This document shows positions 2,545 through 64,000 of a stretch of 64,000 nt of DNA, piece by piece (the stretch's first letter is position 1; each line of letters begins with the position of its first letter). The notes beneath the pieces were generated by a model. The model had not been told where the DNA came from, made no database searches, and saw only the letters and a program-made list of their open reading frames with translations. The DNA is from Raja brachyura. Lineage: Eukaryota. Location of the stretch: assembly GCA_963514005.1 (NCBI GenBank), contig OY740808.1:2108001-2172000 (forward strand). The letters run 5' to 3'. Position numbers and translations under genes: made by a program.

Positions 2545-3650
2545 GACAGCACCATCATTCCCCCCAAAACCTATCACCAAGCTCAGGGAACCGGGTCTCT
2601 GCACATCCCTTTGTAACTGGATCCTCGACTTCCTCATTAACAAAACACAATCGGTACGAGGTGGCAACATTTCCTCCTCAATAACTATCAGCACAGAGGC
2701 ACCTGAAGGCTGTATGTTCAGCCCTCTGCTCTACCCGCTCTATACCTATGCCTGTCACAGTCCCAACACTATCTTTAAATTAGCTGACGACACCACTGTT
2801 GTTGGATGAATTACGGATAATGGGGAGTCAGAGTATAGGAAGGAGATCAATTGAATGGTGACAGAACAGCAACTTTGCTCTTAATGTCAGTAAAACCAAG
2901 GAACTGATTGTTGACTTTAGAAGAGGAAGGTCAAGGATTCACAAACCTGTCTTCATCATTGGGTTGGTGGTGGAGAGTGTCAACAACTTCCTTAGAACTT
3001 CTTGAGAGTTAAGTTTCTGGGCATATATATCTCTCTGAAGATCTGTCCTGGACCCAGCACATTGATGCAATCAGAAAGAAACACCATCATTGCCTCTACT
3101 TCCTTAGAAGATTGAGGAGATTCAACCCATACCACTCTGGCCACACTCTCATTTCACTCTTGCTGTCAGGAAGAAGGTATAGGAGTCTGAAAACTCCAAG
3201 GTCCAGGTTCATGAACAACTTCTTCTTTCCACCAAACATCAGGCTACTGCGAACTCCATCTAAACTATGAACTGCCTTGCTTACCCTCGGGACTTTGGAC
3301 TTTGTTTTTGCACAATATTAGGTTTTCTATTTAACTTTTTTTTGTTTGTTTATATCCATCGAGTATTGTGTTTACAAAGCCTGTTGATAAACACAAAATG
3401 CTGGTGTATTTCTGGAGAAAACAAATAGGTGACATTTCCGGTCAAGACCCTTCTTCAGACTTACAAAACCTGTTGTGCTGCTGCTGTACGAATTTTATTG
3501 GGTACACAAAATGCTGGAGAAACTCAGCGGGTGCAGCAGCATCTATGGAGCAAAGGAGATAGGCAACGTTTCGGGCCCAAACCCTTCTTCAGACTGATGG
3601 GTAAATTTCATTGTTCTGTTTCAGTCCATATGGTAATAAAACACTCTTGA
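2545..3650 (+). mobile_element. Rex1/Babar-type LINE, 5'-truncated and degenerate (RT fragment plus 3' tail), interrupted by two Penelope-repeat insertions
   Basis: ORF 2507-2809 reads LCNWILDFL...[22 protein letters not shown]...[14 protein letters not shown], matching the Rex1 RT pattern (GAPQGCVLSPLL / KFADDTT). It continues with stops and frameshifts to about 3120. Tail ...ggtaataaaacactcttga near 3650. Confidence 0.8.
3503..3598 (-). mobile_element. Solo Penelope terminal-repeat (pLTR)-derived element with intact hammerhead-like core; a more degenerate copy lies at about 3390-3460
   Basis: The minus strand of 3562-3592 reads ctgaaga-a-gggt-ttgg-gccc-gaaa-cgttgcc. The same repeat follows the GIY-YIG ORF at 35353-35478. 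Confidence 0.8.
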
Positions 3651-4989
3651 CCTGACCCATGCACTTTGCCAATATGATTGCATACTTTCAAAAGCTCTCA
3701 AATGTACTTGCTTATAGTACTGGACTTCTTTTATGTACATTACACAGAATTAACTTTTTTCTGACCTCTTTTGTCCTTTTTTCATTTAAGTAATCTTTCA
3801 ATACTGAATTTCACGTTAAAATTAAGCCTGAGAGCTTCATCTCGTAGCTAACCCGAGTTAGTTAATGATATTATACTTCAAAATAGTGCTTATTTTCAAA
3901 ACTATTGCTCTCTCCCCTCAATAACTGCATTTTCATAATTTGTGAACCATGAACCTGTATCAGGTTTGATCTACGAGCACATTAACCAGCATCAGCGGGA
4001 TGTCAGTCTCGTGGTTGCAGAGAAACGGTTTCATGCTTTCCCACACTACTGAATTATTGATTTGTATGTCAAGATAAAAAGTACTTTCCCACAGTATTGA
4101 AATTACCATTCTAGGTGGGTCACGACTAATTGCACAAATTAACCTGTCTAATTACACTCGTAACTAAGTTTTTGATGAGATGTGCAAGCTGATACTGTTG
4201 TGGATCTGATCTTTTGGCTGCATGGCCTGATAATCATGTGAGTAAAAGTGCTGTGCCAGAGTCTGGTCGGTAGCGGCGATATTAGATCTTCAGTGATACT
4301 AGATTTGTCTTTGGATGTTTTCTACATTGCTTCAAGATATAAGTGCATACAAATGTGGCATTCTTTGTAGGTTAGAAATTTAGCCAGAATATTAACATTC
4401 AAAATCTCCAGTTTGTTAGTGGGTATAAAATACTGACAATTACAGAGACTGCCTTTTAGTCTCTGCAATTACAGAGACTGCCTCATATTTCCCAGGCAAA
4501 ATTGCAAGTCAATTTATGGTGCCGGTTTTATTTTATATATTTAAAAGATTCAAATATATTCACAAAGTCTGACATTGCTGCTCATTTGTGGTCTGGTTTA
4601 AAGTCTTTGAAGATTGAAATCATAGCAGAGGAAAGGAACAGAAAGCTAACTTTAGATGCTGCAAGGATTATTCAGATTGTGTCATTCTGGTCCTGTTCTT
4701 GAAGAAAGAAAACTTATTGAAGTCATGAATTTATTACATGCCAATGTGACAAAGCTGCACTATTGCAGCTGGCTTTTGGGTTGAATATAACTCATCAGCA
4801 ACTATAGAGCTTTGCCACAGTGTAATGATTAATAACTCTTTTCTAAACCAAGATTGCTTCAAGTAGAACTGTCATATCACTCGCTGATATCACTGATGAT
4901 TACTTCTTCAAATCAACAGATAAAAATGCTTCTATTTTAACCAGATTAAAAAGTGTTAAAATATCTGATTGCATTGTAATGGAGAATTA

Positions 4990-5395: not shown

Positions 5396-5398
5396 TAA

Positions 5399-7010: not shown

Positions 7011-7543
7011 GTTTATTTTTCTTAATATGCTTCATTAATAATCACATTTCACTCCATATTACATTTTTATTCATTCACAAGATATTGGATACGTGATGAG
7101 GTGCATAATTTTTTTTAATCCAACCTGAGTGACCTTTAGCACAGTCGCTAACTGCTGTAGTCTTTGTGGTGAACCAACATACACAGTGTTGTTCAGTCAA
7201 GAGTTGCAGGATTTTGATTTTGATGATTATGAAGAGGTGGCAGGGTATTTCCAAGCCTGGCTGCTGCAGACTGACCTGTGTTTCTTTGCACCTGCCACCC
7301 TTTCTTTCTAGTGGTGCTGTCAAGGATGCCCAGGTAATTTGCAGGAATGTGTCATATTTCTATATGTTGTGCAATGCAACCATTGTTTCAGATATTGAGA
7401 ATGTTTCAGATATTGTACAAAGTGCTAATCTATTTTAAGTGTTTAGGTATTGATTGGGTACATTTGTGATGAGTTACTCTCCTGATACCGCAAACTTTAC
7501 CACCATATGTAAGGCTAGTGTGACGGAATACATGACACAAGAT

Positions 7544-8031
7544 GTAGACACAAAATGCTTGAGTAACTCAGTGGGTGAGGCAGCATCTATGGCGAGAAGG
7601 AATGGGCAACATTTCGGGTCGAGATCCTTCTTCAGACATGTGTCAGGGGAGGGACAAAGATAGACACTAGGCGGAGACAGACTAGTGGGAGAACTGGGAG
7701 GGGGAAGGAGAGAGAAAGCAAGGGCTATCTGAAGTTAGAGAAGTCAATGTTCATACCGCTGGGGTATAAAATACCCAAGCAAAATATGAGATGGTGTTCC
7801 TAAAATTTGCGCTGGGCCTTACTCTGACAATGGAGGAGGCCCAGGAGAGAAAGGTCAGATTGGGAATGGGAGGGGGTGTTGAAGTGCTGGGCCACCGGGA
7901 GTTCAGATAGGTTAAGACTGACTGAGCGGAGGTGTTCAGCAAAACGATCGCCGAGCCTACGCTTGGTCTCCCCGAAGTAGAGAAGTTGACACCTGGAACA
8001 GTGGATACAATATATGAGGTTGGAGGAGGTG
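7544..8031 (-). mobile_element. Penelope-like (Neptune-type) retroelement 3' fragment: GIY-YIG endonuclease C-terminus, 3' UTR and pLTR
   Basis: Minus strand reads TSSNLIYCIHCSRCQLLYFGETKRRLGDRFAEH...PVAQHFN...GMNIDFSNFR* (stop at 7725-7727, one internal stop). The terminal repeat follows at 7544-7640. Confidence 0.85.
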
Positions 8032-8610: not shown

Positions 8611-8744
8611 TTACAACCAGTTATACACAAAATTGAAAATATATAGTTTCAGTGAGTCGTCATTGACATGACAAGGACATCTGCAGTTCCTTCCTATACC
8701 AAATTGTAAATGTGAAGGTTGTTGCCAGACCCTTAGTGTACTGT

Positions 8745-8872
8745 GTAGGAAAGAACTGCAGATACTGGTTTCAATCAAAGGTAGACACAAAATGCTGGCG
8801 TAACTCAGCAGGACAAGCAGCATCTCTGGAGAGAAGGAATGGGTGAAGTTTTGCGTCAAGACCCTTCTTCAG
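8745..8872 (-). mobile_element. Solo pLTR-derived element
   Basis: gaactgcagatactgg...gtagacacaaaatgctgg...aactcagc...gcagcatctctggagagaaggaatgggtga...acccttcttcag. Confidence 0.8.
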
Positions 8873-10026
8873 AATTATCTTAATATACTGAGTACACCTT
8901 AGTATACTGAATATTAATTGATAAAGATCTAGAAAATTTAGAGTTAACCTGTACAATCTTAACTACCCCAGCTCTAGGGAGATCGGACCTAGCTGAATTC
9001 TTCATCTTCAGTAATTAGTTTTTTCTGAATGGGCTATGTCATCTATTGGTGCTATTAGCTTTGTTTTTCTACCGTCAGCACAACCTGACCTGATGGCATA
9101 AACTGAAATGTTAACTCTTTCTCTTTCCTTAAATACTGCCTGACCAAATTAATAGCATTTATTTTAGTCTTTATGTACATTCATTCGAAGTGGATTGAAA
9201 TCAGATGAGGGGTTGTGTATAACAAACATAAAACTGAGGGTTTAAGATTGATTTTTGCAAGGCATGATGTACGTTAAGAGTTATTTATAATATTGGACTT
9301 CAGTTCATGTCATTGTCTATTTAATAATCCATGAGTTGTACTTGTGATCGGTAGTGATTCCCAAAATGCTGATTGTGGGAGACTTGATGATGCCATTGAA
9401 TGTCCAGGGTTGATGGTTCGATTCTTTTTGAGAAGGTCATCATGCGACACTTTTGGGGTCGTTATTACTTGCCACATTCAGCCCACGCCAGAATGGGAAG
9501 GTCTTGCTGCAGCAAGCTTCATTTATGAATGAAGTTGCGAATGGAATTGGGTATTGTGCAATTGTTACCAAACATTCCCACTTCTGACCTTATAAATTGA
9601 ACCCAGTAGAGCTTTTGTCCAACTGCTGCAGTGACCCAGATTCAATCCCAACCTCGAGTGGTATTTATAATTCTTCTATGGGTTTCCTATGGATACTCTT
9701 ATTTCCTCTTGCCTCACAAAAACATGTTGGCATAAAATTGGTTACTTTAAATTGCACTTAATGTGGAAGTGGTAGGATCTGGGGGGGGAGGGGGGGGATG
9801 TTTGAAATCATGGGAATGTGAACAGTTTACAGAAACCAGTCAGTCTGCTCTCCACTGTACACCTGTGGAAGTTCAATTATACTGTTCAGTGTCGTGCTGA
9901 ATCTCCCCAAAGTTCTGACGAAGTAGAGCTTGATGTGTTTGCTGGAAGATCACTTTGTATTTTTAGTTCAGTTTTGTAGTTTCACCAGGTTGACTCTTTT
10001 TGATTCAGTGTCTGGATCCTCTTCAA

Positions 10027-11080: not shown

Positions 11081-13369
11081 ATCCCTTTTTGGAGCCAGTG
11101 TTGGTCACTTGGTTTGGTGGTCATTATATAATATGGGATATGTCAGACCATGATGCTATTGGTTATGGTCAAAGGCAAATCTACTGCCGGTGGCCATTAG
11201 AAGCTCTGACCGCTCAGTTTGTGTTCCTTGACTTATTTTGAATTTATCCCATTTTACACAGTAGTAGTGCTCTGATGTATAGTCTGAAGATGGGTCTTTT
11301 ATCTGTAAAGGTGATATGATGGTCTTTCAAAAAATATTGATGTGGATATATATAATCAGAGTCTCAAGACTTTGAAGATTCGGGGTCGAGTTTGAGTACT
11401 TCCAGAGTCACTGTACATGCATGCTCTGGTGATTGAATCTTCTAGTGCAATTGGATACATCTAGGACTTGTGCTACAAGAGTCTGGAATGTTATCAGAAA
11501 AGTGCAATTCTGTGAGTGTGCCAGGCTGTGATACTGGAGTTTTTTTCCCTATTTTGGCATAATTCTGGGGATAACGACAGCAATGATGATGTGTCCTCAT
11601 TGCCTCTGGTTCTGATTCTTAAATTGATCTAACGGGAGTGGTCTATTCCAACGCGTTTTTAGCCTCTTATCTTAGTAATGTTACACCTCTTTGAGCAATG
11701 AATGTATATAACAAATTTTCTTAAATATAAACAGAAAATGCTGGAAATGTTAATCGGGTCAGGCAGAATCTGTGGCAAGAGAAAAGGGCACATCGAAAAG
11801 TTGGAAGTGCAACATTTGAAGTTGCAGAGAAGGGGGAAAGGTAAAGAGAATGTGGATGGTCTGCAATAGGCTGGAGACTAAAGGGGTGAAGGACACATGA
11901 AGGACATGATGTGGGCATGTTGATCAGAGATGATCTGTCTGGACGAGTTATAAATAGGAGATGAATAAAAGTAGAGAGGGACTGACAAAATACAAGAGAA
12001 TATGGCACTGGGGAAGTAATTCAGGATAATATTTGACATCAATATCATTAAGTCCAAGACTTTCAAAGCAATATAGACTATACCTTCTATTTCTTTCCAT
12101 TCCCCAATTGAATCTCTGTCAATGATTTCACTTTGAATTTCAATGCACACGTGCAAAGCTATGTACTTGTCTGTTAGAGACTAGTATGGCAACGGGTGAA
12201 GTACAACATTGAAATTTGATATCGAACGCTTCTGAAAGGCTCTTAACACCTAGAATCCACGATTATGAGAAAAGTTGGACGTTTAAAAAAAAAAAACAGA
12301 TACTCCCCACATTTGTAGATTTAAGAAATAACATTTAGATTCTTATCACGTTCTTATGAGAAGTTGAGTTTTCACTGTGCAGTAATATTTCACGCCCAGC
12401 TTCTGCACACGCTCATAGGCCTCACCCTCTTAAATGCAGAAGATAGACTGAAGTCTCCATTTTGGAGAAGATAAACTCATCAGTCTGCTAGGGTGGCACA
12501 GTGGTGCACCAAGAACAGCAGCTTCCCCACAACTCTCACAACCTGGGTTCAAACCTGACCTTTCACACTGTCCCTGGAATTTGCCCATTCTCCCAGAAAG
12601 TGCATGGTTTCCTGGTGCTCTGATTTGTGTGTTGGGGAACTATATATACACCATTCCCTGTAAATATCCTCCTTAAGACAATTTTACAATTTTGAGTCAT
12701 GGTTTGATGCTCTATTTTCATTTGTTAATTTTCAGTGAAGTTTTTCCACATTGCAGAAGTTTAGGAAATGAATGTAGTGTATGCAATGAAACATTATGTG
12801 ATGATGAATCTCAAGCACCAGCAGAAAAGCCTTTCTAAATGTCTAGAGGCTGTGGGAGGGCAGAACACAGATCTGTATCTAATTCAGTGGTAACGAAGGC
12901 CAGGCCTGATTCTCGATAAAGATTAATTTAATCTACAGTTGTGTCTTATCTATATAGTTCAAATGGTATTATACAACCTCGTAACAAAACATGCTCCTAA
13001 TTTAAAAGACATTTTCATTTTACAAGGTACTGTTTTCCATCAACGCTTTGTAAAATCTTAGTGTAGCTGCCTATGGTCCATTTTCAAACCTTCTGCCATG
13101 ATATAAAGTTCTTGTTTATTTTGTGTGGCATGTACATCCATGTGAGAGCCTTTTAATGTTGGACCTATCTTTTGGAAAATGGAATAATGCTGTTTGTAAA
13201 TAATACAGTTTTATGCTTAACAAGAATAACACCATATTCAAAGTCCCAACCATACTGAAGCAAATGCATTCAAATTTTCTTTGGGTTATTTTGTTCAACA
13301 ATAGGAAACAGAAGCAGGGTTAAGCCAATTGATTCCTCAAGCCTACTCCATGGATTCGGCGAGTTACTC

Positions 13370-17440: not shown

Positions 17441-20400
17441 GCCCTGTACTGTAACCATACAGTTGATCTGTTGAACCCGGTTATATTGGAAAAGTGAGAG
17501 GAAAAAGTAAATTTAAATTCTATTACTGCAATTTATTCTTTGCTTCCCAGGTGCAGCCAGTTTCCTGGTTAATCTGGATTTGACTAATAAGGACAGTGCA
17601 AATTAGGTTTGCAGTATTTTTTTCCTCCAAGGTTCTGTCCCTCGCATTTATTTTGCAGCATCCCCTTAGTTGCCTGTTACCTCGTCCAGCTGACAGCTCT
17701 GCTTTGCTTTGTGGTTTTATCTTTTTCTCCCCATCCCTGTCTGCTTTCTATCTCCTTTTATCTGCCTTTTACTACTTTCTTCTTTCTCTCTTGTCCAGAT
17801 AATGATTCCAAAGACCCAGCAGCATTTGAAGCGATAAACCAGCCGACTGGCATTCACTGATTAATCAGTCCTGCACTGCCCTGATAGGGTGTTAATTTGT
17901 AAAGTTAATGGACAGGCAGCCATGATAAGCTGTAGCAGCTGCTTTGTAGCTGCTGGTGAAGCAAGAAGGGAGGGGGATGGGTCTGATTGACACCAACTGG
18001 CAACAGACTAATATTTTGGTTGTACACGAAAAATGCTCGTCGTAAAAGTGTTTAATGTGTTTATAACATAAAAGGCAGTAGAACATGTGTTACAATTTGG
18101 AACTAGTTCAAGTGTTGGGGAGGGAGGAGGCATGTTAGTGATAAAATGTTGCCGTGACTGCAAAATGACATATGTGTGTAGAGTGCTGTCTGCAGCCAGC
18201 ATAATTTTACTCCTCCCTTGCCAAGCCTTCCCTTCTGTGCTGTTACACTGATATATGCAGGCACCTTGCATGGCGAGCAATTCTAGTTATGACACTGCCA
18301 AGAGCCTGAGGCGTTTTGTATTGCTGCCAATTTTTAAGTTTATACGGCAATTTGGTATCTGAATAGAGATGAGGGAAACCAGATCCTTGTATCAGTTCTA
18401 GTTTCTAGGAGGTTGTAAAGGAAAGCATTGAATGAAGTGGTAGAGATTGGCCACTACGGGAAGCAACAGAGTATCAGGAGATAAAACAGACTCTCCTTGG
18501 GGAGTTTTTAAACTGCACTGAGACTTCATGCTTAACTCCTTTTGCTTAGTATGTTTCTACAACTGTTTTACCCAGCTTAGCTTGGGAGGGGGTTGTGACC
18601 TCAAGAGCTTTTAATGCCCTTTCCTTAGGGGAGCTTTATTGAGCTCAGAGGAAGGTGATTCATAAAGCGTAGCTAATGGAGGGAATAGGGAAGAAAAACT
18701 TTGCAGCTGATGGCTCTCCAGGGGGAGTCTGTGGCTTGAGGCTTAATATGTGGACATGCTCAGAGGTCAGGTTTCCTGCAGCTTTTTGGGTAGGGTTTCC
18801 ATTTCCGGAAGGTGCAGATATTGTAGTAAACGTTTATAAATAGAGCAGACTCAGCAAATATGACCCAGTGGTACTACAAATACTGCAGTAACAGATAAGC
18901 AATTTGCTTGCTTCCAAAAAAAGACAAATGAACCAACCTAGATGTTTGCGGTAAATCCATAAAAGCTGATACATCAATTTATCAAGTGGAAGAAGTAAAA
19001 TTAAAATCTACTGTTTGTCATCAATCTGTAACTGGTCAAGTTAATTTGATAAAACTCAGTAAAATTGAGGATACTTCTCAATGAATTAAAATGTGAGGGA
19101 AATCAGGTAGTTTTAAGCAGAGTATGTAGACATTAGAACAAACTCACAATTCGATTGGGTGAATTAGTATTGAACCAATATGTAAATGTTTTGATTTAGC
19201 ATAGCTGAATGTTCATGTTGAAGAAAGGGAGGCTTTTACAATTGGAAAGAATATATGATGTATTTAGCTATTTAAATCTTGTAGTAAGCATGTAACTTTT
19301 TTTCCATGACAGCTTTGCACTTTTGAACAAAACAAGAAGTTTTTGCATTGGTACCTACCATTTAAAAATAAAATGTTCTCAATTAAGTAATGTTTTCTTT
19401 ATTTTAGTTAAAAATGATTGCACATCAGAAGAGTACAACATTGCCATGCTGTGATTGAGTGGAATTTTAGTATTATATAATCCTAATTTAATATGGGTGA
19501 AAGAGCTAGCTGGGGAAGCAATTAGAAATGTTGCAGGACTTTACACAAAAATCCCATTAATGGAGATGAATGCAATGTGTTCACGAAAGACAGAGAGACC
19601 CAGTTTGCAGACGCCAATGCGATGTCTGCCCATTTCCCTCCACAGATGCTGCCTGACCCGCGGAATTCCTCCAGCACTTTGTTTGTTGTTTTCAGGAAAG
19701 AAATGGTATTGCCTTCAAAGTTTTATGTACTTCAGAGAATTGTACACCATGGTCCTAGTAAATCATCATAGTAAATGACATTCACAGGAGTCAATTGCAC
19801 CAAGATAACATTGTTAGCATGTTGATACTTGTGTTCATAATCCTTTCAGACAGTCATATTAAAATAAATGTTGTCTTGAAATTCTAGGTAAAACTTTGTG
19901 TGCTGTGTTTTAAATTAATAGCTAAGTAAATCATGGGATATGGGGATAAGGCAGGAACGGGGTACTGATGTTGAATGATCAGCTATGATCATATTGAATG
20001 GCGGTGCTGGCTCGAAGGGCCTACTCCTGCAGTTATTTTCTATGTTTTTATATGCAGAAAACTCTGCAGTTCCCATCTTGGGGTGAGCATCTCCTCAGCG
20101 TGCGGGGTATTTTATTTTTTAATATATGTTAATCACCCCAAAGAGCAACTTATAGCAGCATTGGGCATTTTGAGGGGGGGAGGGGTGTGGTGGTAACAAA
20201 TAGTGCTTTAATTCAGAAAGATTCAGAACCACTGAAATAACAAATGCATAGAAGTAATTACAAGTCCATATAACAAATCATGAAGGGCAAAGGAAATATT
20301 TTATCAGACACAGAAAAAAGGCTGCAGTCTTGAGATTCCGCCCTGGTTTATTTGGTGGGATTATTGCCACCTTTAATTCTATTTCAGCAGTGATTGCTTG

Positions 20401-22425: not shown

Positions 22426-22572
22426 CTACTGTTTACAAGTGTTGTGCTTGCAGTTCACATCCAGCTTTCAAGACCTAAAACTATCCTTTGCAATTGATCT
22501 TGTTGCATGCGGTTGAGCGAAGGTGGGAATGAGACTGTGGTACAGGATATTCTGTTATTTAGATGTGACATG

Positions 22573-48006: not shown

Positions 48007-48438
48007 TATGGATAAATTATGTGGGAAGCCAGAGTGTTTCTGTGCCAATAGCAATAACGACCCATGCTATGGCCATGTCATGGTAATTTTCGGTCCTTCA
48101 CAAAAAACACGCTTGCATCAATCTGTAGTGTGCATGGTCCAGGATTTATTGGCACATGTTGATCATTTGCTGAATAATCCAACCACATTTTTGTTTGGAA
48201 GTGGAATGAACTAATAGAAATTGCATTCATTGCAATATGTAAAAAGAGTTGAGATATTGTATTATAATGTTGTTGCATATCATTGTGGTCATTTAAGATG
48301 GATAGGAAGGGGGGTCAGTACAGGATGAATTGGGGGACCAGTGTAGAATGGATGGGGGGGTGGCAGGAGAATATCATGTCTTCATTGGTGAATATGTTTA
48401 GTTTGTGAGTTATTTGAAGCAGAAATAATATGTGAATG

Positions 48439-48656
48439 TAGACAAAAGTGCTGGAGAAACTCAGCGGATGCGGCAGCATCTATGGAGCGAAGGAAATAGG
48501 CAACGTTTCGGGCCAAAACCCTTCTTCAGATTGATGGGTTTTGGCCTGAAACGTTGCCTATTTCCTTCGCTCTCTAGATGCTGCTGCACCCGCCGAGTTT
48601 CTCCAGCACTTTTGTCTACCTTCGAATTTTCCAGTATCTGCAGTTCCTTCTTGAAC
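48439..48656. mobile_element. Fold-back pLTR-derived element with 14-bp TSD
   Basis: TSD ataatatgtgaatg at 48425-48438 and 48657-48670. Arms are near-perfectly complementary. Confidence 0.9.
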
Positions 48657-51890: not shown

Positions 51891-54179
51891 TATTTAAAAA
51901 CATATAGCTCAAAGAAATATACGTACCACATATATACATGAACATTCTTCCCACTTTGTTTCATAAGATACTCTTAAGATAATGGCAATCCATGTTTGAA
52001 AAACTCGCCAAGAGACTTGCGCTGCTGTGTATGCTGAGTACACAGTCCACGGTGCAAAGGCAGAATTTCAGCTGCCTTCAGCTCCCCTTGTCCGTGAAGG
52101 TTTGAAGTCGCGTCGACGGCACGTGAGCTGCACACACTTTCACGTGTTACAAGTACTGCGGATGAAAGGCACGGAGTATTATGCCTGAAGAGATCGATCT
52201 CTTAGGTAGGCATAATTCTCCCGTGCCTTTACTAATAATTACCATTTTATAATTTTGGTCAGAGTAGGCCTCAGAGGATCTTGGGTCAGGTTCAGGATGC
52301 AAAATCTTTTTCCATAGAGGAAACTGATAACAAGGGGCTACGCTGTTGGGATAGCAAGAGATAATGGCAAAATATAGCAAAGTAAATCAGAACCTTTTGG
52401 TTAAAGTTCCTTGAGGGAGAGAAGACAAGAATTGTTACAGGCCCACATTCTGAAAAACAAGTCACCACCATCACCCTTGGCTTCTGCCACAAGCCAATTT
52501 TGCACCTATTTGGTGAGCTCACCTTGGATCCGATGTGTTCTTGTGGATCAGCCAACCATGCAAATCCTTGCCAAAGGTCTTGCTAAAGCCATGTATACAA
52601 TGTCTGCTGCTCCAACCTCCCCCCTCCCCTCCCTTCTACTTTATAAAGTAATTCCTTGAAGTATATCAATATTTTCAGGGAATTCATCACGCCAAAGTTT
52701 TTAAACCAATGATTTAGACATAATTGAGTCCCAGCTATTTTCAACACCTGCTGCTGCGATGTTAACATATTGGATTGCTGACGCTGTAACTGCATGCTCA
52801 TCTTGGTGTAGCTCCAATGTTAACTGACCCAGTTCCAGAAAACTGCAGAACATTTCTCGCACCTCTTCACCTTGACACCCACATCCTTATCAACATGTGT
52901 AAACTTCATCTAAACATTTAAAATAATATTTAGTGTTTTCACCCTTCAAGAGACTTTGCACTGTCTCCAATAAGTCAAAATTTACCTGCAGAATTCTCAT
53001 TTAAACAAAATAGTTGATAGTTGTGTCAAGCAGAAATGAGACAATTTAGACTTTAGCTCTGTGCAGTTGGCAATGTATCCTAATTTGATATTCAAAACTG
53101 ACATCTAAAGAACAACTTTGCCTGCCTAGGTTTGTGCCTTAGGGAGGAATAACGAGACACTGTTGTCAAAGTCTTATGAAGCAGCATTGCTGTTGGGTGT
53201 AGAAATGTCAGAAAAAGACGGTATGGATCAGGGAAATAGTGGAAGAGTGCAATTTGTATTGATGGGTTCAATGCTGTCAGTTTCCAGGGACGTGTGAAAG
53301 GGGTAAATCAGTAACGTTACCGAGTCGGCATTGCAAAACGTTTTGGTAAAGGTAATTCATGTTTGGATCCGTACGGGAATGTTATGTTCACAAAGCTGAT
53401 TGTAATACAGTCAATATAGTAGGTAGACTACTATACACTATACTATACTATTATTCCAGCATCTGCAGTTCTTTCTTAAACAGTCAATATAGTGATCGAG
53501 TGGTCATTTTGTAACTAATGATCTTGTGTGCCAAAAGGAACAATCACCTGTTTTGTTTCCCCCTGCTCAAGACTAATTGTAGATTGGGTCTGGGAGCAGA
53601 CAAATTCAGCCTAATCTATTGCACATTTTGAAGTCTGACCATTTATTTTCTTTGGATGTATACATACATTAAATGTAACAACTTTGCGCAATATTCTAAG
53701 ACTACTTACTTTGGAGCAAATTGCAATGCACTGTGAACAGCCCTATAAGCATTTTATGAAAATATAAAAATATTCCATTAGAATGGGTGGTATAGAATAT
53801 ATATTTAAAACAATCAAAATATTCATAAGGCTCCGCAGGTGCAGATTAGAACCAGTTAGGGGTTGTCTGCACATTTATAGTGAAGTACAGGTAAAATGAA
53901 CATTTTGCTTGCAGCAGTATCACAGGCATATAGACTCGGCCAATGCACAAAAATATCAATTATACATAAATTCTCCAAGGCAATGAAAAGAAAAAGACCG
54001 ACAGAAAACAAGATATTAGTTTTCTTAGGCCTTCTACACTCCCATTTTCACATCCTTCAACACCCCACTACAGCATCCTAAATCCTCAGAGCCCATTCTC
54101 ATCAATACCGGGGCTTGTTCACTTCCTGTTGTGAAAAGTTTGGTGATCAATTCAGAACCTGTGAGAAAGAGGTGTGTGG

Positions 54180-54303
54180 GAAGAAGGAACTACAGATGCT
54201 GGTTTAAACCGAAAATAGACAAAATGCTAGAGTAATTCAGTGGGACAGGCAGCATCCCTGAAGAGAAGGAATGGGTGATGTTTCGGGACGAGACCCTTCT
54301 TCA
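54180..54303 (-). mobile_element. Solo pLTR-derived element
   Basis: gaaggaactacagatgctgg...gggtgatgtttcgggacgagacccttcttc. Confidence 0.8.
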
Positions 54304-56475
54304 AGAGATTAATGGATTTGAGCAGTATTTGGGGAAAATTGTAATTAAGTTTACTTTTTAAGAATGAATATCTTTAAATATTTACAATGGGACCATTAAT
54401 ATACATGTTTCACCATGGACTAATGTCAATTCAAAAAAGGAAGTTATTCCATTTTACTTAAAACCTCTGAGATTTTGTTTTACTTATTTAAAAGCAAGAA
54501 GTTGCCCATTATGAGTCTAGGAAATTCTCTTTCTCAAAGGACAATGGAACTGAATGTTTTAATAGTTTTAAGGGAGTAGATGAAAGCAAGGGGGTGAAAG
54601 GTTACTGCATATTGAATAGTGGAGCAGGCTCACAGGGTTAAGAAGCCTGCTCTCGCGTCTAATTTGGTTGCACGTTCATATGTTAGGAATGTCTAATCAA
54701 ATAAAAGAGGATCCTGAGCGTGGCCAGCAAGCAAACTGCCATTCTGTGAAGAAAACAACCACTTGGAGACACTTTGTGCTTTGCGTTAACACAAATAATT
54801 CACTTGAGATCTGGATTGATTGTTGTGAAATAGGCAAAGTTAACCAAATTGTTTTAATACGAAAATCAAATGCAGGTGCACTAGTGCTTAACTCTATTTA
54901 ATCTCAGTTAAATGTGATTGAATGCAGCCAAAGAGCAGGGATTTGGAGGTATTAGCAGATATATCAGTGCATCAGGATCTTTAGGAAAGAACATAGCTGG
55001 TGTTCATTGATTCAATAGAAAAGTTCGTGAAGCGCCTTGAGATTAGGGATTTTGAAGGCTTTAGCCAAGGCTGTTAATAAATAAAATAAATGTATCCAGT
55101 CTACTTGTAGAATAGTGGTTGGAAAATTCAAGGTTGCATACAGTAGCTCTCCAGTTGGGGTGCAATCAAACAAATAAAAACTATATAGATAATTAATTGT
55201 GATGTTATCTGTTTTTATTGAACTTCAGACTGAAACCAAGTCTTTGTTTTGTACATTTCACAACTGAATTTATGTTAGACTTTATTTAATACTGTTTTTC
55301 TTGCCCCAAAACACGTTTTAAGAAATGTTTTAAGTATTCTATTTTTTTAGAAATCCGCATCGCAAGTATATTCAATTCAGTGGCGCTTTATTGTCTCGTG
55401 TGCACCGCACAATGAAATTCCCTGAAATGCCGTCATAACTCCGTGTGATCCTTTCAAATTGTATGGAAATGCCTGTCTCAGTATAAACGGGTCAGAAAAT
55501 GGTTATTATTTGAAAAGAAATGCACCCTTTTGGTACTATTGGCATCGCTTTTGGATCTGGTCTTCATGTTCAGTAAATATAGCTCTTTATCTGAACATAA
55601 TTTGCTGTGTTGTCCTATGATAGAAATGGAAGTCCAGTGAAATTTGAAGTTTATGGTTTTGTCGTTATAAATTATGTTCTCTTAATTCTCAGTAAGTCAT
55701 TTGTAAATATTACCCTAAAGCTTGGTTTCCTGCAAAATACTTGCAAAGTATCTGAGGTAGAGAAGGAGGCCATTCTGCCTATTGAGCATCTGCAAAGCAA
55801 TTTAATCAGTGCCATTAACATTTTTGGTCTCTGAAGCCCTGTAGACTGATGCTCACAATCATACCCTTGAATTCTATTCTAATACATGCATCAGTCCCTA
55901 AACACTAACTGTGGTCCACGTTGACCTTTCCTTTACCAGCATTCTACATACATTTACGTGCAGCATTCTTTCTACCTCCAACATATTTGAAAATCACTCA
56001 CTGCTTATCATTTAAGTTTTCTAATGGACATCACTCAATGTTTTCAGTTTCAATCAAGGAACTGGGTACTTTTTAAAGTTAAATGTTATTCAGCCTGAGA
56101 TCAGGATTCCGGATTTTCTTTGTAGAATGGTTAGTTTGTAGACAGTGAAGCGTTGATGTTTGCCACGTTGGAATTTAGCTGCAAATGAAGGAATAGATTA
56201 ATTTTTCATATCATTTATAATGTGCACAACTTCATAAGGGAAGGCACTTGGATATACCAACACAATTGCCGACTTTCACAAGAGGATATGATGCATTTGC
56301 CTGCAATACCTATAATTCATTTTACTAGTTTATAAATGTGTGTTTGATATTCAAATATGGCAAAAATAACTAAAATCAAAATAATTAAACTATATTACAT
56401 TTTACAAATTTCAGAAAATAAAATTAACTTTCCCTTTGACTCGAGATCTTTGTCCTACAATCCCCATTGAAATTA

Positions 56476-56775: not shown

Positions 56776-58554
56776 TCTGTGCGATCTCTTATACTGCCCC
56801 CAGGTGATGTCTGGAGTGTAATGCTGGAGAATCGAGCCAGACTTCCAGACCTATCGGCTGGACACAGACTACCTTGTTTTGTGGTGCTTCAATCATGAAA
56901 TTGAATTTTATTGGCTGAATACTAGTGTTTCTGGTCTTGAGATATTTAATAATACAGATTAGAGATTCTAATGTGCAATACCTATACACTGTATGGAAAA
57001 GTAAGCATCGGATCGAACTTAATTGCCTTTGCCTCTTATTGGTCACCTCTTAACAGGGAAAATGTCTCTTCTGACCAGAGGTATTTGGGAAGTGTTTGCA
57101 ACCAGTGGAGCAGAATCTTGCATTACAATTGATGCTTTCATTGCAGCATGAATGCAAGGGAAACTGCATATTTATTTTACTGGAATGTGGCAAGATGAAG
57201 AACATAACTTATGCAGGAATAATGCCATAAAAATATTTGAGCATGGAAGCGTGTGGGATATATGGTTACTACCAATATCAACTCTACCCATAGAATGCTT
57301 CTATTTATAAAATGAGTTTGCAGGTATAGGCGTGGTCATATCAACACACATAAGTGTACTTGATTTTAAGTCTTTGAAAATAATGCGACGATCTGATTCT
57401 CCGATATTTCTACATGAAAGCAATGCATTTATAAATTATAAAATAGTCCCACTTGTTTCCTTGAAGACTTGCATGGGAAATGAGTGAAATATCAAAGAAC
57501 AAATTTCTTTTGGTATACACATCTTGAAAGTTTCCACCTTAAGGACAGTTAAAACAAGAAGAAAGTATGCAAAGAAGTGTAAAGAGAGCAGTAGCATACA
57601 GAAGGGTGAAGCCTATCTTAATTTACTAACCAAAACGATCTTTTGCACATTAAAAAGGTTATAAACTTAACATGTATGTGGTGCATTTGAAAAGTTTGGT
57701 CTTTCAGCAAACGTGCCACCAAGGTTTATACTGACAAGAGTGATTCCCAGCCTTAATTTTTTGGTGTATATAATGATGGGAGATCATTTTCTCAAAGAAT
57801 TTCTTGTTTTTTTATGTGGAAGATTAATCTGAATTCTGAAATTGGAGATGCACATGCCTAATTTTAATCACATAGATATATCGATTATCCAAGACCTGTA
57901 GACATTGAGTAGTAATTTCCGAGGATGTGCTGCACATAAGTAACTAAAGCATGTGCGTTGTCAGCATGTCAGATACTTGCTGGGTTAATCAGGACATCAC
58001 CAAGGAGATTGTAATCGTGCTAACCAGGGTTTTAGTGGAATGGGCTCCTGGCATGAGAGTTTCAAGCAGTTGGAGACAGTGCCAGTGACAGATTTGCTGA
58101 TACTGTCAATCAAGGGCCACATTTTTTATGAAAGCACTTAGCCTACCTGAGCAACCTCAACACATGCTTTGGCTTGGCTGAGGCACATATGTCAGGAACT
58201 GGCAGCAGTAATACACCAGTAAAACAATGTAGCTTCAACTTGTAGTTTAAATTCACATTTATAGGAACTCTTTACAGGTGCCATACAAAGCCTTTCACAT
58301 TGATTGTGAAACATTGCTAACATAAAATAGCTTTTCCTTTACTGTATAGTTCTTCCCCTCTCATCTTTCTCACCTACACCATTGGGAGAAAAAATGTAAA
58401 TGCTTATGAGTGAAATAGAATGTCAGACTTCATGTCCTCAGGAGGTTATTTTGGGAAAGAAACAAACATTGATAAACTAATGGGAGATTTGAGGTCTTTC
58501 AAATACTTGTTAGCAGGACTATATTAAATACAGCAGGGAGAATAATGTAATGAA

Positions 58555-58870
58555 TAGGAACTACAGATACTGATTTATACCAAAGATAGACACGCAATGC
58601 TGGAGTAACTCAGGATCTCAGGACAGCATCTCTAGAGAAAATGGATAGCTAATGTTTCAGGTCGGGACCCTTGTTATGACTGATTGCAATAACGAGTGTA
58701 GGGAACAAGAACTGGAAGCAAGTAGAAAAAATCACAGGGCAAATCAGGGCCAGGAGGTTCCCTGATAGGCCAATTGTTGGCTCGAGACGAGTTTGAGCCC
58801 AAGAGGGATATTGTTGAGAGCTGTGGAGCTGGTTAACGGACTTTTCGTGGTGGAGGGAGGAATGCTGTGT
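58555..58870 (-). mobile_element. pLTR plus probable Penelope 3' UTR fragment
   Basis: pLTR motif at 58555-58685, then a purine-rich block like those next to pLTRs elsewhere. Confidence 0.6.
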
Positions 58871-59532
58871 TGTTTGCGACAGGTACATGGAAATAAAAAT
58901 ATGCTTCAGTGTTTTGTTTAATGATGAGTGAGCTTCCGTTTACATCAGTTGAATGTATTTATTGCTCAGCAAATGAAATTCATCAGGACAGCACATATCA
59001 GGTTGTGTATGGCCCTACAGTTACACCAATACTTGGTTCCTTAGAAACTTGTTTGTTGCACATTCCCCCTATTTGCCGCTGTCACTACAGCGCTACTCTG
59101 ATTTAGTTCCAAATCCATTTTGACAGTTTATAGAATGGGTTATATATAGAGAGGGAAACCAGATGTGACAGCCTCAGTGGCAAATTCCAGTTGCCTGCAG
59201 CCTGAAGGATGGAAGATGAACTGATCCCGATTTGTTTCACAGCTAGGGCCCTCTCTAGTTAATTGGCTGCCAATAGCTTTACTAATGAATGATGATGGAT
59301 GGAATGCAGGTTGCTTGAACAGGGCACTTAAAGCAATGAAAGCATCATACATACAGATATCACCTGAAGACAGCTGCTGAAGTAGGAAAGGCTGCAGCAA
59401 TCAATGCCTTTGCTCCGTGTCCCTTCCCTAAATGTTTCATTACAGTGCACGTGGGTAAGTATTGCTTATTGTGGCAAATTAACACAGTTGCTTCAATATT
59501 AATTTTAATTGGCCGGATGATATATCTTCAGG

Positions 59533-59758
59533 TGGACACAGAATGCTGGAGTAACTCAGTGGGACAGGCAGCATCTCTGGAGAGAAGGAATGGGTGACAT
59601 TTTGGGTCGAGACCCTTCTTCAGTTGGTTGTAAAAAACAATGTAACATATACTTTGTTTTTTAAATCACAAAAGTACTGGAATAACTCAGTGGGTCAGTC
59701 AGGATCCCTGGAGAATGTGGGTAGGTGACATTTTGGGTCAAGACTGCACTTCAGACTG
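59533..59758 (-). mobile_element. Two tandem solo pLTR-derived elements; another lies at 62385-62480
   Basis: tgctggagtaactcagtggg...gggtgacattttgggtcgagacccttcttcag, repeated. Confidence 0.8.
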
Positions 59759-60599
59759 AATTTGTGTTGTCAGTCAATGAGCATCTGTTTGTCCATAACC
59801 AACAGCTTCTGTCACTCGGCAGAATTTTCCTACTCCAGTGGGAAGAGATTGACTTTGCTTATCTATATTCTTCCTACTGCGCTGGAACAAATTTATCTGC
59901 CTCTACTTCAAAGCACTCTAATCCATTAAATTATTTCTGAGATAATGCTTTTATTCATGCTGAGATTCTTCAAATCAAAATTCTGGTTCTGAAGGCAAAC
60001 TACCTATTTTCCAGTAAAAAGTTTAAGCAATGTGATATAATAGACTATATCAGTTTGTGGTAGATTTTAGAATAAGCAGAATTTAAACACAAGATTATTA
60101 TTAAACAAATTTCATTTATAGATTTTTGGACATGAAATTCAAATCAGCTTCATAAAAATACCTAATTGCGATTTCATTGCAGTACCACACAAACAATTTC
60201 TGATCGTGAACATTTTTGTATTATGATTTTGTTCTCACTGCAAGCAAGATTTTGACTTGGAAGTAGGAAGAAATTGCACCTCATGTTTTATCAGTTTGAT
60301 TGTTTCTATCAATAAAGCAACTCAGAAGATCTTGTTATTGGTTGATGAGCAAGATGAACCAGTTGGAAGCAGATCTTGTTTAAGAGTGTATTTCATTCAT
60401 TAACATTGAATTGTAGCTCCACTGGTCTATTAAAACTTGAGTAAAGCCAGTTTCTTGGTATTACATTGTTCGATTGCTGCCCAGCGACCATTTAATCTTT
60501 GTGCAACTGAAGGAATCAATCTACAATTTTGCAGTTGGTTGAATTAAACCTGGCTGATCTGAAAAATGACTGAAGACTACTGATCCATCTGATCTTAAG

Positions 60600-61210
60600 T
60601 GGTATAGTAACACTTATTACTGACCCAGTAGCTGGGAAGTCTCACCACAGCAGCTGGGAATTTAAATTTAATCAATTAAATCTAACATTTTCTAAAAATT
60701 TACTGTTGATAACATTGAATATGAAACTACTGGATGTTTATAATAACCCATCCGATTCACTAATGCCTTGGATATTACAGAAAATTTGCCATCTTTATCT
60801 AGTTTGGCCCCACATTCTCCTATTCTTTCCCTTCTTTCCCCCCCCCCCCCCCCCCCCCCCCCAAATGCCAGACTGTACACTGACCTACGTACTAGGGGCA
60901 ATATACAGTGTGCAATATACTGTGTACAACATACCGTGGCCTAGTAACCTACCAACCTGCATATTTTTACAATGTGGGAGGAAATGGGAGCACTTGGGGA
61001 AACCCAAGTAGTCACAGGAAGACCATGCAAATGCCACACAAACAGCAGCAAAATTCAGGATTGAGCCTGGTTGCTGGAGCTACGAGATAGCGTTTCATCC
61101 AGCTGCCCAATGTGCTGCTCTACATGCTCGACCCGTAACTGCCTCTTCACCAGCAATTAAGGATGGACAATATATGGCAGCATTGTCAGCAAATCAACAT
61201 AAGTGAAGAA
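60600..61210 (+). mobile_element. SacSINE1/DeuSINE-like SINE interrupted by a poly-C run and a minus-strand HE1-like SINE (about 60900-61120)
   Basis: cagctgggaatttaaattt...aacccatccgattcactaatgcc...gccatctttatctagtttggcc, resuming at taactgcctct...gcaattaaggatggacaat. Confidence 0.55.
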
Positions 61211-64000
61211 TCAGTATGAAGAATAAATAAGCCCAAGTTTGCAATGTGCAGCTCGACCAGAATCTCTCTGTAAATACAACAGAAAATAGATACTGGAATG
61301 AATTGTGTTATCCATACTTGTTTCTTGAGGGATATTGGTCAATAAGTTAATTGAAAGCAGATCTTGATGTTTTAATGGTGTCATATCTTTGGAGTTTCTA
61401 AAAGGTGATGTTTATAAAAGGTGATTTTGCTTAGCAGCTGTGGACTATTATTCCTCGTCGCCATTAAAATCAAGCTGAAGATGCTCATTGTCACTTATTT
61501 GGCAAAGCCACCTGTACTTTAAACTCTTAAGGCATAATTTAATAATCTCACATAGATTCCTAAAAAAAAAGTGAAATCCGTTTACAATGAGCAAATGTTA
61601 TTCATTATTATTGGGGACACTCGGGCACTAATAATTGAATGAACTATCACATTTAGAATTACCTTTTAAGTATTTTGCAGCATAAATGTGAGTTAGTTAA
61701 TAAACCTGACGACCTTGCACTTTTGCCTTTTAATATCACCACTGGACTTTCATGGTACCTATAGGTACAGTATATACAGTAATTACATGCCACAATAATG
61801 CTCTCAGGGACCAAATACTGATGTAATGGTTTAGTTTCCACTTTTGGAGCATGAGCATGCATTAATTGAAAAGATTAATAACTTTCTGTTTAGGGAATGG
61901 GAGACAAAATCAATTCCTCAGGTCAGAATGGGAAATGCATATTGTTGCTTCTCATTTATTTCCTATCTACTAATGCTGCTACTATGGTACAGTTTGAGTA
62001 TAAACTATTTGCCTATGATATACTTTAGTGAAATACTACTAATAAATTGCAGTACAAGGTTGCCTTTTAGAAATCAAAAGGATTAGCATAATATTGGATA
62101 AAATAAGATATTTTCAAAGGAACACCTAACATTCCAATACTCAAGAAGGACAAAATTGTCAAGAATCTTGAATCCAGTTATTGTGTGATCCCATTAATTT
62201 TAGAACATTGATCAATATTTTACTGATAGAAATAAAATGGAGGAGTACTTGTTTATTGTTGTTCATTGGAGAAATTTGGGCTAAGTTATTTCCAGTGATT
62301 TAGTATAGTTTATTGTCACGTGTACTAAGGTACAGTGAAAAGCTTTTGTTGCGTGCTAACCAGTCAATGGTCAATTTAAATGAAGATAGACGCAATGCTG
62401 GAGTAACTCAATGGGACAGGCAGCATCTTTGGAGAGAGGAATGGGTGACATTTTGGGTCGAGGCCCTTCTTCAGACTGATGCATTTAAATGAGATGCATC
62501 ATAGACCTGTTTCTTTGGAAATAACTACTGGTACTTTTTTATGTTTAATGTCTAATGTGTACACTCCACATTCAAATACCCAAAGCAATATGAACCTATT
62601 CCTGATAAATGGCCAAATGTGTATCTGATCCAATTTTAAGCTAATCTTTTGTTCACAAACACTTATTCTGAAAACTTGAGTGTGATTGCCCCAAACCAAA
62701 TAAAGTAGATTTCAAAACTTTGTGTGCATCAATGCTGATTCTATTGGGTTTTTTTTCCCTTGGATTTTGATTAGAATTCCATTTTTTGCCTCGTCCATGG
62801 TACATTCGAAGATTGCATGACTCTGCCTTTGCCCATGTGGTCTTGATAGTTAAACATAGCTGGCAGTTCTTCAGAAGATCCTCGCATCTGCAGTGAAACT
62901 GTCATAAGTTTAGAAAAATAAAGCAGATGTAGAGAAAGCAAAGAATTAAAGCACCAAAAACATTTTTTGCTAACCACCCCAAATGATGCCAAATGAATGT
63001 TACATTTATGCCGCATTCATTATTGTATTGGTATTGACATTTTTCAATTAAAGTCTTAATGGCAACCAGCCTCTGGAACCATGATCTTGAAAATATGTTG
63101 TGCAACTAGTGTTACTGTAAGATGGTATTTAGGGTGTTTTACTTTAAATTAACATGGGCTCATAATAAGTCTAAAGCTCCACCCTATTGTAGTCATCTAT
63201 ATTTTCCAACATGACACATTTTAAAACGTTACATGAGTGTTTGCAAACTCTGTACAGGGCATTTACGGTGTTAGCTGGCTGACTATCTTAAGTACATAAA
63301 AAGAATAACTAAATCTGTTGGCAGCTGTTGAATAATAAATTAGCTTGATGCACTGATTCACCTCGGGAAAGTACTTCAAATGTTAATGTTCCTTACAGAT
63401 GTGAACAAGGAACAAAACACATGGAAAGGATTGCTAATTACTGCATCAAAGTAAAATGTGTCCCCTGATCTTTCCCTGTATGATCTCTGATGATTGCATG
63501 GTTTGAACTAGCTAACAAAAATGAACCAAAAGGCCCTGGTGCCTGATAGCATTTATACAACATCTGTGGTAGAATAACTGATATTTGATTTCCTCTTTTA
63601 AAAATGATTAAGCTATAAATATTCACTATTTTTCAACATTGATGTTTATCTGGTTTCCTATTTAACCCTGACGTTTGACATTCCCATCGATGAAGAATTA
63701 AACTGATTGGATGAGATGTGACCAAACTTTGCACGATCTTGAAAAATCAATTGTTGACTGAGCTGGATATATTAGATGGCTTTGACCAATTTGAAAGTAT
63801 TTTAACTACAGTATGGTAGTCTTCCTGCACAAAGCTCTATGCTTTCTCAAGTTTGTGAGCTATGTGGAATTGTTCCCCTTCCATTATTATTTTGAAGCAG
63901 GAATGTGTATATGGAGATAGAAAGCTCCAGCTATCATTGGAATTCTTGAGTATAAATCACCCATACGGCAAACTGCAACATAGGCACACAAATGGCTTTG

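Follow-up and report, generated by a model that had tools for sequence, protein, structure and literature searches.

We analyzed a window of 64,000 nucleotides of Raja brachyura DNA (assembly GCA_963514005.1, contig OY740808.1, positions 2,108,001 to 2,172,000), in which an initial annotation had described an abundant repeat of high density. A profile search of the window bore this out. Twenty-nine fragments were found, 12 on the plus strand and 17 on the minus strand, with E values from 4e-38 to 0.02; the profile was seeded with 10 window copies, which match by construction. No match was obtained when the reversed window was searched with the same profile. The fragments lie at 23 sites, cover 3,024 bp (4.7% of the window), and occur at a density of one site per 2.8 kb (Table 1). 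Each full copy consists of a minimal hammerhead motif, approximately 70 nt of further sequence, and an optional tail of approximately 30 nt. Three subfamilies (A, B1, and B2) were distinguished, and no ORF start was detected in the repeat.

Table 1. Copies of the repeat and associated features in the window
Feature	Position	Strand	Details
Old single	3383..3461	-	internal deletion; 15-nt flanking repeat, one mismatch (by eye)
Single, B2	3474..3597	-	intact minimal hammerhead, C3 at 3592, predicted cut after 3565; no tail
Second 5'-truncated PLE	7538..8030	-	GIY-YIG fragment 7728-8030, containing one stop; spacer of 92 nt; tailless repeat, core bases kept, stem II mismatched
Single, A	8742..8875	-	tail present; G12 mutated
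Old body fragment	11718..11779	-	no hammerhead part
Old fragment	19627..19683	+	begins near predicted cut site
Pair, B1	22220..22430		tail on - arm; 15-nt duplication 22205-22219 / 22426-22440, partly overlapping element end
Intact minimal hammerhead	22336..22367	+	helix I 2 bp; CUGAAGA from 22338; extra A; stem II 4 bp; GAAA-CG-UU; predicted cut after 22365
Single, B1	28901..29032	+	tail present; core mutated
Pair, B2	32101..32328		both arms begin within core; 5-nt filler; tail on + arm; 9-nt duplication
Old pair	32966..33180		tail on - arm; 7-nt flanking repeat (weak)
Body fragment, 31 nt	33776..33806	+	
5'-truncated Neptune-like PLE	34526..35478	+	frameshifted Cys-motif linker and GIY-YIG (~34503-35169), then a 3' region rich in pyrimidines, the repeat with 12 nt of its core deleted, and a tail; target-site duplication of 10 nt, 34516-34525 / 35479-35488
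Pair, B1	38392..38620		tail on - arm; 9-nt target-site duplication
Copy	42148..42217	+	begins near predicted cut site; runs into N gap at 42220
Pair, A	46480..46712		tail on - arm; duplication looked for, none found
Single	46827..46923	-	begins in stem II loop
Pair, B2	48432..48655		tail on + arm; 14-nt target-site duplication; - arm with intact core, C3 at 48529, helix I 1 bp
Tail-only fragment	53449..53481	+	weakest match, E 0.019
Single, A	54181..54304	-	tail present
Old single	58551..58682	-	tail present
Single, A	59521..59624	-	no tail; G12 mutated
Old single	59667..59759	-	43 nt from the 59521..59624 copy, different subfamily
Single, A	62373..62479	-	no tail; 10-nt target-site duplication

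The window also contains two GIY-YIG endonuclease fragments, and the repeat terminates both, as had been claimed; a Pfam GIY-YIG match was obtained at E = 1.5e-4; in the copy at 35353, 12 nt, CUGAAGA included, are missing between two GTCT words. Eight of the 150 listed homologues are 770 to 930 aa long, and all eight have RT motifs, a Cys linker, and GIY-YIG. Of six homologues scanned, four matched both Pfam RVT_1 and GIY-YIG. Neither an RT core nor a full-length element was found within the window, so the clade assignment is drawn only from the linker and the endonuclease. The Cys-rich linker is a Neptune trait, but Nematis has a similar one, so it is not exclusive. Mobilization by a Neptune-like RT/GIY-YIG protein, in line with the suggestion of the initial annotation, is supported. 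Neptune-clade EN+ Penelope-like elements (PLEs; PMC8557442) likewise have a C-terminal GIY-YIG domain after a Cys linker, 5' truncation, an inverted 5'-truncated copy, a tail of 30 to 40 nt at one end, and a hammerhead near the 3' end. Here, in contrast, 27 of the 29 fragments lack coding sequence and any partial upstream region and comprise the terminal ~100 to 135 nt only, with a sharp 5' boundary. We put at roughly 0.6 the probability that a Neptune-like Penelope retrotransposon family has this repeat as its terminal (pLTR) segment and that the short copies are two-ended insertions.

The Penelope origin, also proposed earlier, is supported by the hammerhead as well as by the GIY-YIG fragments. 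The pattern CUGANGA-N, a 4-bp stem II, and GAAANNUH occurs in the window only at 22338 (+), 3592 (-), and 48529 (-), exactly where the three best copies had been placed; 60 dinucleotide shuffles gave a mean of 0.07 matches. All 11 core bases are intact in 5 of the 29 copies, and core plus stem II in 3. In the A, B1, and B2 consensuses alike, one extra base separates the CUGANGA box from stem II. Stem II has 4 bp and a 4-nt loop, within the published range (3 to 7 bp, loop of 3 to 10 nt), and is closed by G10.1-C11.1, with 85% of cells paired; GAAA-N-N-U-H with palindromic 15.2/16.2 is also present. The core, extra base, stem II, and palindrome match the consensus of the minimal hammerheads published for PLEs (PMC4209133), which share the lack of helix III, a U/pyrimidine-rich upstream region, and mostly dispersed single motifs with some opposite-strand pairs. 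Such motifs were reported there in fish Neptune, Poseidon, and Xena elements; the 56 aligned motifs include no cartilaginous fish.

The repeat differs from the published motifs in helix I, which consists of one A-U or G-U closing pair and one G-C pair. The published descriptor (helix I of at least 3 bp; Fig. S7 of that paper) gave no match in the window because helix I has 2 bp; when relaxed, it gave two matches at 2 bp and three at 1 bp. Since the same paper accepts variants with a 2-bp helix I (6 of 56 aligned rows, all with two G-C pairs), we file the repeat as such a variant and not as the descriptor type. A possible third pair in two B1 copies may derive from the junction. Given this helix, the earlier doubt about monomer activity appears justified.

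The U-A and U-G forms of stem II and the ACGU palindrome named in the initial annotation are as described, but the change is one-sided and so is not covariation; two-sided change was seen at 0 of 6 stem pairs in 21 aligned rows, a set with little power. The core is identical in all three consensuses even though G12 lies in a CpG and shows decay in 7 of 23 copies. Core conservation exceeds that of the body only at p = 0.065. An Rfam scan of the window returned no hammerhead hits. A competing hairpin is conserved to the same degree (90% paired, against 85% for the hammerhead stem), and the active dimer is predicted to lie 20 to 26 kcal/mol above the best dimer fold. All four to five subfamily changes in the hammerhead fall at tolerated sites (chance, 0.003 to 0.018, with tolerance judged by us and post hoc). 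Genomic copies probably decay neutrally. We propose that the hammerhead is kept by the source elements and would most likely cleave slowly, only as a protein-assisted dimer; it would not be needed for making short insertions.

It is possible, if not our preference, that the hammerhead is vestigial, persisting as a promoter, splice context, or protein-binding site and no longer cleaving. Its helix I is weaker than the six two-pair cases among the published rows and has a predicted pairing probability of 0.0, covariation is absent, and 8 of 9 Xenopus dimers showed no cleavage in vitro. Against this stand a core that agrees in full with the published consensus (extra base, G10.1-C11.1, and 15.2-16.2 palindrome all present) and the avoidance of constrained sites by the subfamily changes. 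Moreover, an anole PLE hammerhead that is silent alone cleaves with protein (PMC11167929).

Absent from the initial annotation were six head-to-head pairs, which account for 12 copies. In all six, exactly one arm carries the ~30-nt tail (0.016 if the arms were independent) and both arms share subfamily-diagnostic bases; four have target-site duplications of 9 to 15 bp. Exact flanking duplications of at least 9 nt were present in 6 of 18 units, compared with 0.6% of random pairs; the other 12 units had no exact duplication of that length at their ends. The short copies are single insertion events with 9- to 15-bp duplications. The junctions all differ from one another, which indicates that every insertion forms its own palindrome instead of inheriting one as a unit. 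The paired copies are insertions of the "inverted pLTR plus tail" type known for PLEs; an inverted 5'-truncated copy and a one-sided tail have been described for PLEs (PMC8557442, PMC3846280). Adineta vaga Penelope insertions share the head-to-head inverted pLTRs, the tail on one pLTR, and a palindrome or overlap at the junction, and have 8- to 10-bp duplications and a 31-bp tail (PMC3846280), but only a few such rotifer cases are known, and most of them still contain ORF sequence. Neither the motif, nor its association with PLEs, nor the combination of inverted pLTRs and tail is new to the literature; the window supplies another example of the described arrangement.

By eye, 18 of 25 short copies begin within -10 to +5 of C3, and 2 of 25 near the cut site. 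These 5' ends lie upstream of the cleavage site and so point to an RNA template that had not been cleaved. Two RT start sites, an uncleaved template, and a protein-assisted hammerhead have been described for Poseidon of Anolis carolinensis (PAc; PMC11167929), in which the hammerhead is likewise followed by two 3' end points ~30 nt apart and insertions at AT-rich targets hold an uncleaved hammerhead. PAc belongs to another PLE clade, and its ORF starts in stem II. By analogy, the RT/GIY-YIG protein would make cuts in the two DNA strands where the target is AT-rich. Reverse transcription would begin internally on element RNA that has not been cleaved, at either of two closely spaced sites that correspond to the tail ends. 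If both target ends were extended, one per site, two cDNAs, or one cDNA and its fold-back copy, would meet at their far ends and be linked by microhomology or filler only a few bases long, which would yield an asymmetric palindrome. Extension of one target end would give a single copy. More tentatively, synthesis would stop just upstream of CUGA because the RNA 5' end lies there, with the start site in the pLTR, in which case most short copies would be run-off products from the 5' pLTR of the element's ordinary transcripts. A transcription start site within the pLTR has been described (PMC2377424, PMC6765202), but in Drosophila virilis Penelope it precedes the hammerhead by ~50 nt (spliced) and not by 5 to 10 (PMC2377424, PMC4209133 Table S1), which counts against the run-off step.

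The same enzymology could act on another template. The initial annotation postulated a separate non-autonomous family, and short RNAs starting just 5' of CUGA might be transcribed from inserted mini copies and remobilized in trans by the Neptune-like protein in a SINE-like manner. The sharp 5' boundary and the scarcity of coding sequence favor such a mini-PLE. In addition, B2 is a supported clade (96/96), B1 and B2 group apart and have no endonuclease-linked member within the window (weak evidence, because only two coding copies are available), and putative non-autonomous PLE derivatives are known in Chlamydomonas (PMC8557442). However, the endonuclease copy at 34526-35478 groups among the subfamily A short copies, so these can be truncated products of the autonomous element, and the copy at 7538-8030 groups next to B1/B2. 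The dissimilar pair junctions also count against this option, which we consider rather unlikely, at about one chance in four.

Somewhat less probable still is that the 5' boundary reflects RT arrest at the border of hammerhead and pyrimidine tract during copying of the 3' pLTR, after which the cDNA would snap back on a palindrome overlapping CUGA. Several copies have short inverted complementarity around CUGA, the junctions at 22336 and 48529 have 3- to 5-nt overlaps, and 5' palindromes of the pLTR with self-priming have been proposed for rotifer Penelopes (PMC3846280). Other junctions, though, lie at +5, +8, +12, and +20 with fillers, away from the palindrome, and two copies read straight through the region.

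The two-ended reading can be extended, speculatively, into a joint scenario to which we give similarly low credence. A PLE protein dimer would hold two RNAs, with the DNA ends primed at the distal and proximal RT start sites; both cDNAs would run off where the RNA begins, immediately 5' of CUGA, and be joined by microhomology. Within this complex of two RNAs, two minimal hammerheads would come together and form the "dimer" ribozyme in trans inside the particle, and this would act after copying, e.g., by releasing or removing the template. B1 and B2 would then be a PLE-dependent SINE-like class consisting of hammerhead and RT-start signal only.

The term "retrozyme-like" used in the initial annotation is not supported, because there are no tandem arrays and no ends set by cleavage. 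In a true non-LTR retrozyme, cleavage frees monomers that circularize and are reverse transcribed into tandem copies. Animal retrozymes (PMC7229834; bioRxiv 10.64898/2026.07.22.740005), including those of Xenopus in the latter study, share a short noncoding repeat with a type I hammerhead and a relation to the PLE pLTR, and direct copies ~130 nt apart occur at two places (3383-3597 and 59521-59759). Animal retrozymes, however, form head-to-tail arrays bounded by mostly canonical hammerheads and give circular RNAs, whereas the copies here are single or head-to-head and the motif is minimal. The family overlaps none of the 16 tandem-repeat rows of the window, both sets of direct neighbors differ in subfamily and have unrelated DNA between them, and the cut site lies inside the copies, whose ends are fixed on either side of it. 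For this window the retrozyme reading is largely refuted and very improbable. A foldback MITE of a DNA transposon or a microRNA hairpin family, suggested by the ~100-bp hairpins of the pairs and Rfam miRNA matches down to E = 8e-08, is rejected as scarcely credible, given that the repeat ends a GIY-YIG ORF and is linked to RT-GIY-YIG elements, that all these matches fall far below gathering scores, that the arms are asymmetric with single arms at 17 of 23 sites, and that the duplications vary from 9 to 15 nt.

The significance of these observations lies mainly in annotation: approximately 5% of the window consists of Penelope terminal stubs, which also produce false miRNA-like hairpins. Their regularity may matter too: each pair has a single tailed arm, and the 5' boundary is sharp and lies at the edge of the hammerhead. 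Across the whole genome, the same regularity could separate two-ended priming from fold-back models of PLE integration, whose second-strand step is still unvalidated experimentally (PMC11167929), and could show whether a hammerhead with a 2-bp helix is under selection. If the joint two-RNA scenario were true, this genome would offer, on a very large scale, natural material for studying the second-strand step of integration by PLEs.

A profile seeded with 10 copies from the window was used to search the window for the repeat that carries the candidate minimal hammerhead (min-HHR). This revealed 29 fragments between positions 3383 and 62479, totaling 3,024 bp (4.7% of the window) and occupying 23 sites, of which six hold inverted pairs and 17 hold single copies. 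The profile gave no match in the reversed window, and the repeat family is real. In the consensus, a helix I strand precedes CUGAAGA and one additional A; next come a 4-bp stem capped by a loop of 4 nt and then GAAA-CG-U-(C/U), followed by a body of ~70 nt and then an optional tail of ~30 nt. All 11 hammerhead core bases are intact in just 5 of the 29 fragments, in 3 of which stem II also is intact. One copy abuts at its 3' end an N gap of 186 bases (42220-42405), which may conceal a second copy in inverted or tandem arrangement. Searching contigs of prokaryotic genomes for the repeat pattern gave 0 matches, as expected because the repeat is animal. Elsewhere, a Pfam scan of 40 of the 138 stop-to-stop ORFs in the window matched only the LINE reverse transcriptase (RT), which we take to be CR1 type from its RT motifs, and no host gene.

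Features of the window apart from the dispersed copies of the hammerhead-bearing repeat
Feature	Positions	Strand	Details
GIY-YIG fragment, longer	34526-35478	+	Pfam GIY-YIG E 1.5e-4, just below curated cut-off
GIY-YIG fragment, shorter	7538-8030	-	73-aa piece, no Pfam match
LINE reverse transcriptase	30718-31839	+	373-aa open frame; Pfam RVT_1 E 2e-22
Decayed older LINE copy	10121-10628		65% identical to 30718-31839
23-bp minisatellite	47747-48006		In GC-rich stretch
Inverted minisatellite copy	48297-48372		76 nt, 97%, about 490 nt from the 47747-48006 array
24-bp tandem repeat	5617-5729		x4.7
61-bp tandem repeat	51474-51659		x3
Second dispersed repeat family	13777-14058, 41795-42049, 56492-56760, 60939-61025		~280 nt; ~71% between copies

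Two copies of the repeat lie after the ends of GIY-YIG reading frames, which confirms the claim of the initial annotation that the repeat terminates both fragments. The fragments are 75% identical to each other at the DNA level. A search of 1.84 billion representatives returned 4,049 relatives at E values up to 0.001. Among the 150 matches listed, all eight relatives of 770 to 930 aa combine RT motifs, a linker of the C-x-C-x2-C type and the endonuclease; RVT_1 and GIY-YIG were both matched in 4 of the 6 relatives scanned with Pfam. The longer fragment has the same Cys linker, and the window contains no RT core of a Penelope-like element (PLE). Neptune-like is a reasonable label for the element on these sequence features but is not proven, because the linker is given for both Neptune and Nematis (PMC8557442). 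The sole species-named match among those listed was an NCBI skate gene model for neuromedin-U receptor 1, in which the last ~60 residues are a Penelope endonuclease with 75% identity to that of the window; this probably is a mis-annotation, or possibly exonization, and the match would fit a skate or ray host. Blastx of the repeat copies longer than 80 nt against 153 proteins gave no match that would place an ORF start inside the repeat, a weak test given the distance of the homologues. At 35330-35356 (+), just 5' of helix I, a pyrimidine tract that ends in CAG resembles a 3' splice site, as in Drosophila virilis Penelope, where an intron ends 5 nt before C3, the first base of CUGAAGA (PMC4209133, PMC2377424). 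The AG is absent from the copy that ends the shorter fragment, and that fragment is bracketed by short inverted arms of another repeat at about 7430-7495 and 8035-8075.

The inverted-pair architecture was overlooked in the initial annotation. Twelve copies form six head-to-head pairs, with the pair centers at the 5' edge of the hammerhead. When copies were sorted by diagnostic bases into subfamilies A, B1 and B2, both arms matched in all six pairs. The tail is on exactly one arm of every pair (identity of 0.83 to 1.00 versus 0.00 to 0.43 on the other arm), a pattern with a chance of 0.016 if the arms are independent. Flanking duplications were sought in 18 units, leaving out five small fragments. 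Exact duplications of 9 to 15 nt were observed in 6 units, including four of the six pairs and the longer endonuclease copy, and random pairs attain a 9-nt match in 0.6% of cases; two further units have one-mismatch duplications by eye, and 12 of the 18 have no exact duplication of 9 nt. A 10-nt match at 3597 was dismissed as a target-site duplication, as it lies inside two element copies. The architecture is that reported for PLE insertions, in which a 5'-truncated copy lies in inverted orientation and one end bears a tail of 30 to 40 nt (PMC8557442, PMC3846280, PMC8969392). In the anole, the Poseidon protein cuts and extends both strands, and reverse transcription begins at two internal positions, one on either side of the tail (PMC11167929). 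Junction sequences vary among the pairs; therefore, the palindrome is generated with each insertion rather than being amplified as a unit. At the junction at 32190-32205, a 5-nt filler matches sequence from the stem II loop region of the element itself, with 3-nt microhomologies on either side, which suggests a template jump during joining.

The 5' ends of the copies were read by eye for 25 of the 29 fragments (the two ORF-linked copies and two tiny fragments were left out). The first base lies between -10 and +5 of C3 in 18 of these short copies and between +8 and +40 in seven; none starts upstream of -10, and no copy in the window has just part of the upstream region. A start close to the predicted cut at +28 was seen in only 2 of the 25, and the inserts therefore are copied from uncleaved RNA, which also is the main template of anole Poseidon (PMC11167929). 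Something sets the insert end just 5' of CUGA. We favor run-off at the 5' end of the RNA, which would place the boundary there, because PLE transcription start sites are located in the pLTR, the terminal segment (PMC6765202, PMC2377424), and products of the Anolis Poseidon element become shorter with 5'-shortened templates (PMC11167929). The D. virilis Penelope start, ~50 nt upstream on spliced RNA, fits the boundary only loosely (PMC2377424). Besides run-off, the boundary may come from RT arrest with fold-back or from a dedicated short transcript.

A min-HHR descriptor coded from PMC4209133 Fig. S7 gave 0 matches in the window at its own helix I minimum of 3 bp. Relaxing helix I to 2 bp yielded two matches (22338+ and 3592-) and to 1 bp a third (48529-), compared with a mean of 0.02 to 0.07 in 60 dinucleotide shuffles. 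These are exactly the three best copies named initially. No Rfam hammerhead model matched the whole window or two intact copies at E values up to 10, and Rfam miRNA matches in the window were dismissed as palindrome artifacts. The motif matches the published min-HHR consensus in full (PMC4209133). Its helix I is weaker than those of the 6 of 56 published motifs with 2 bp, all of which have two G-C pairs (PMC4209133). A longer helix I drawn from upstream DNA is impossible in the two ORF-linked copies because both strands are pyrimidine rich; the copy at 35353, which ends the longer fragment, has lost CUGAAGA through a 12-nt deletion.

The core is the same in all three subfamilies, even though G12 sits in a CpG and is A in 7 of 23 copies, and the 4 to 5 subfamily differences within the 30-nt motif fall in loop 2, at H17, or change A-U to G-U. 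The chance that all fall on tolerated sites is 0.003 to 0.018, calculated post hoc with our own count of 11 to 12 such sites. Judged from the sequences, core constancy, consensus match and the placement of differences would count for hammerhead function. Counting against function, conservation of non-CpG core columns exceeds that of random columns only slightly (0.86 versus 0.80; P = 0.065). The covariation check, which had little power, showed two-sided changes in none of six base pairs (21 rows) and pairing not above shuffles. A competing hairpin between the stem II 5' strand and the strand after the cut site is 90% paired, versus 85% for stem II, and helix I has a predicted pairing probability of 0.0. 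Ignoring tertiary contacts, Mg2+ and protein, the active dimer reaches -6.5 and -7.1 kcal/mol, and the most stable predicted dimer folds reach -26.6 and -33.5. In anole Poseidon, the hammerhead requires protein for cleavage, and in vitro insertion does not depend on the hammerhead (PMC11167929). Most likely, the source elements carry a putative slow, protein-assisted ribozyme that is dead in nearly all copies.

Animal retrozymes are head-to-tail tandem repeats that carry hammerheads and are expressed as circular RNAs (PMC7229834; bioRxiv 10.64898/2026.07.22.740005). None of the 16 tandem-repeat rows in the window overlaps the repeat family, and the two direct-neighbor sites hold copies of different subfamilies separated by unrelated spacers; the proposed retrozyme label thus fails. 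In a tree of 26 of the 29 copies (only 1 of 23 inner branches is strongly supported), the longer endonuclease copy lies among subfamily A and the shorter adjoins B1/B2, of which no member in the tree is ORF linked. A non-autonomous family, as proposed initially, is a possible reading.

It is already published that min-HHRs occur in PLE pLTRs and are dispersed by the thousand as single motifs, that opposite-strand hammerhead pairs lie 100 to 700 bp apart, and that animal retrozymes derive from PLEs. The 56 aligned motifs of PMC4209133 include none from cartilaginous fish, and one such fish is covered by bioRxiv 10.64898/2026.07.22.740005. The accessible portions of the literature searched held no direct description of the repeat family in elasmobranchs or of its 5' boundary, and the genome literature checked made no mention of Penelope; an entry for the family in Repbase or Dfam is likely. 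If transcribed, the six pairs would each fold into a near-perfect hairpin of ~100 bp (-104 to -167 kcal/mol), and such hairpins could give rise to double-stranded RNA or small RNAs or be subject to A-to-I editing.
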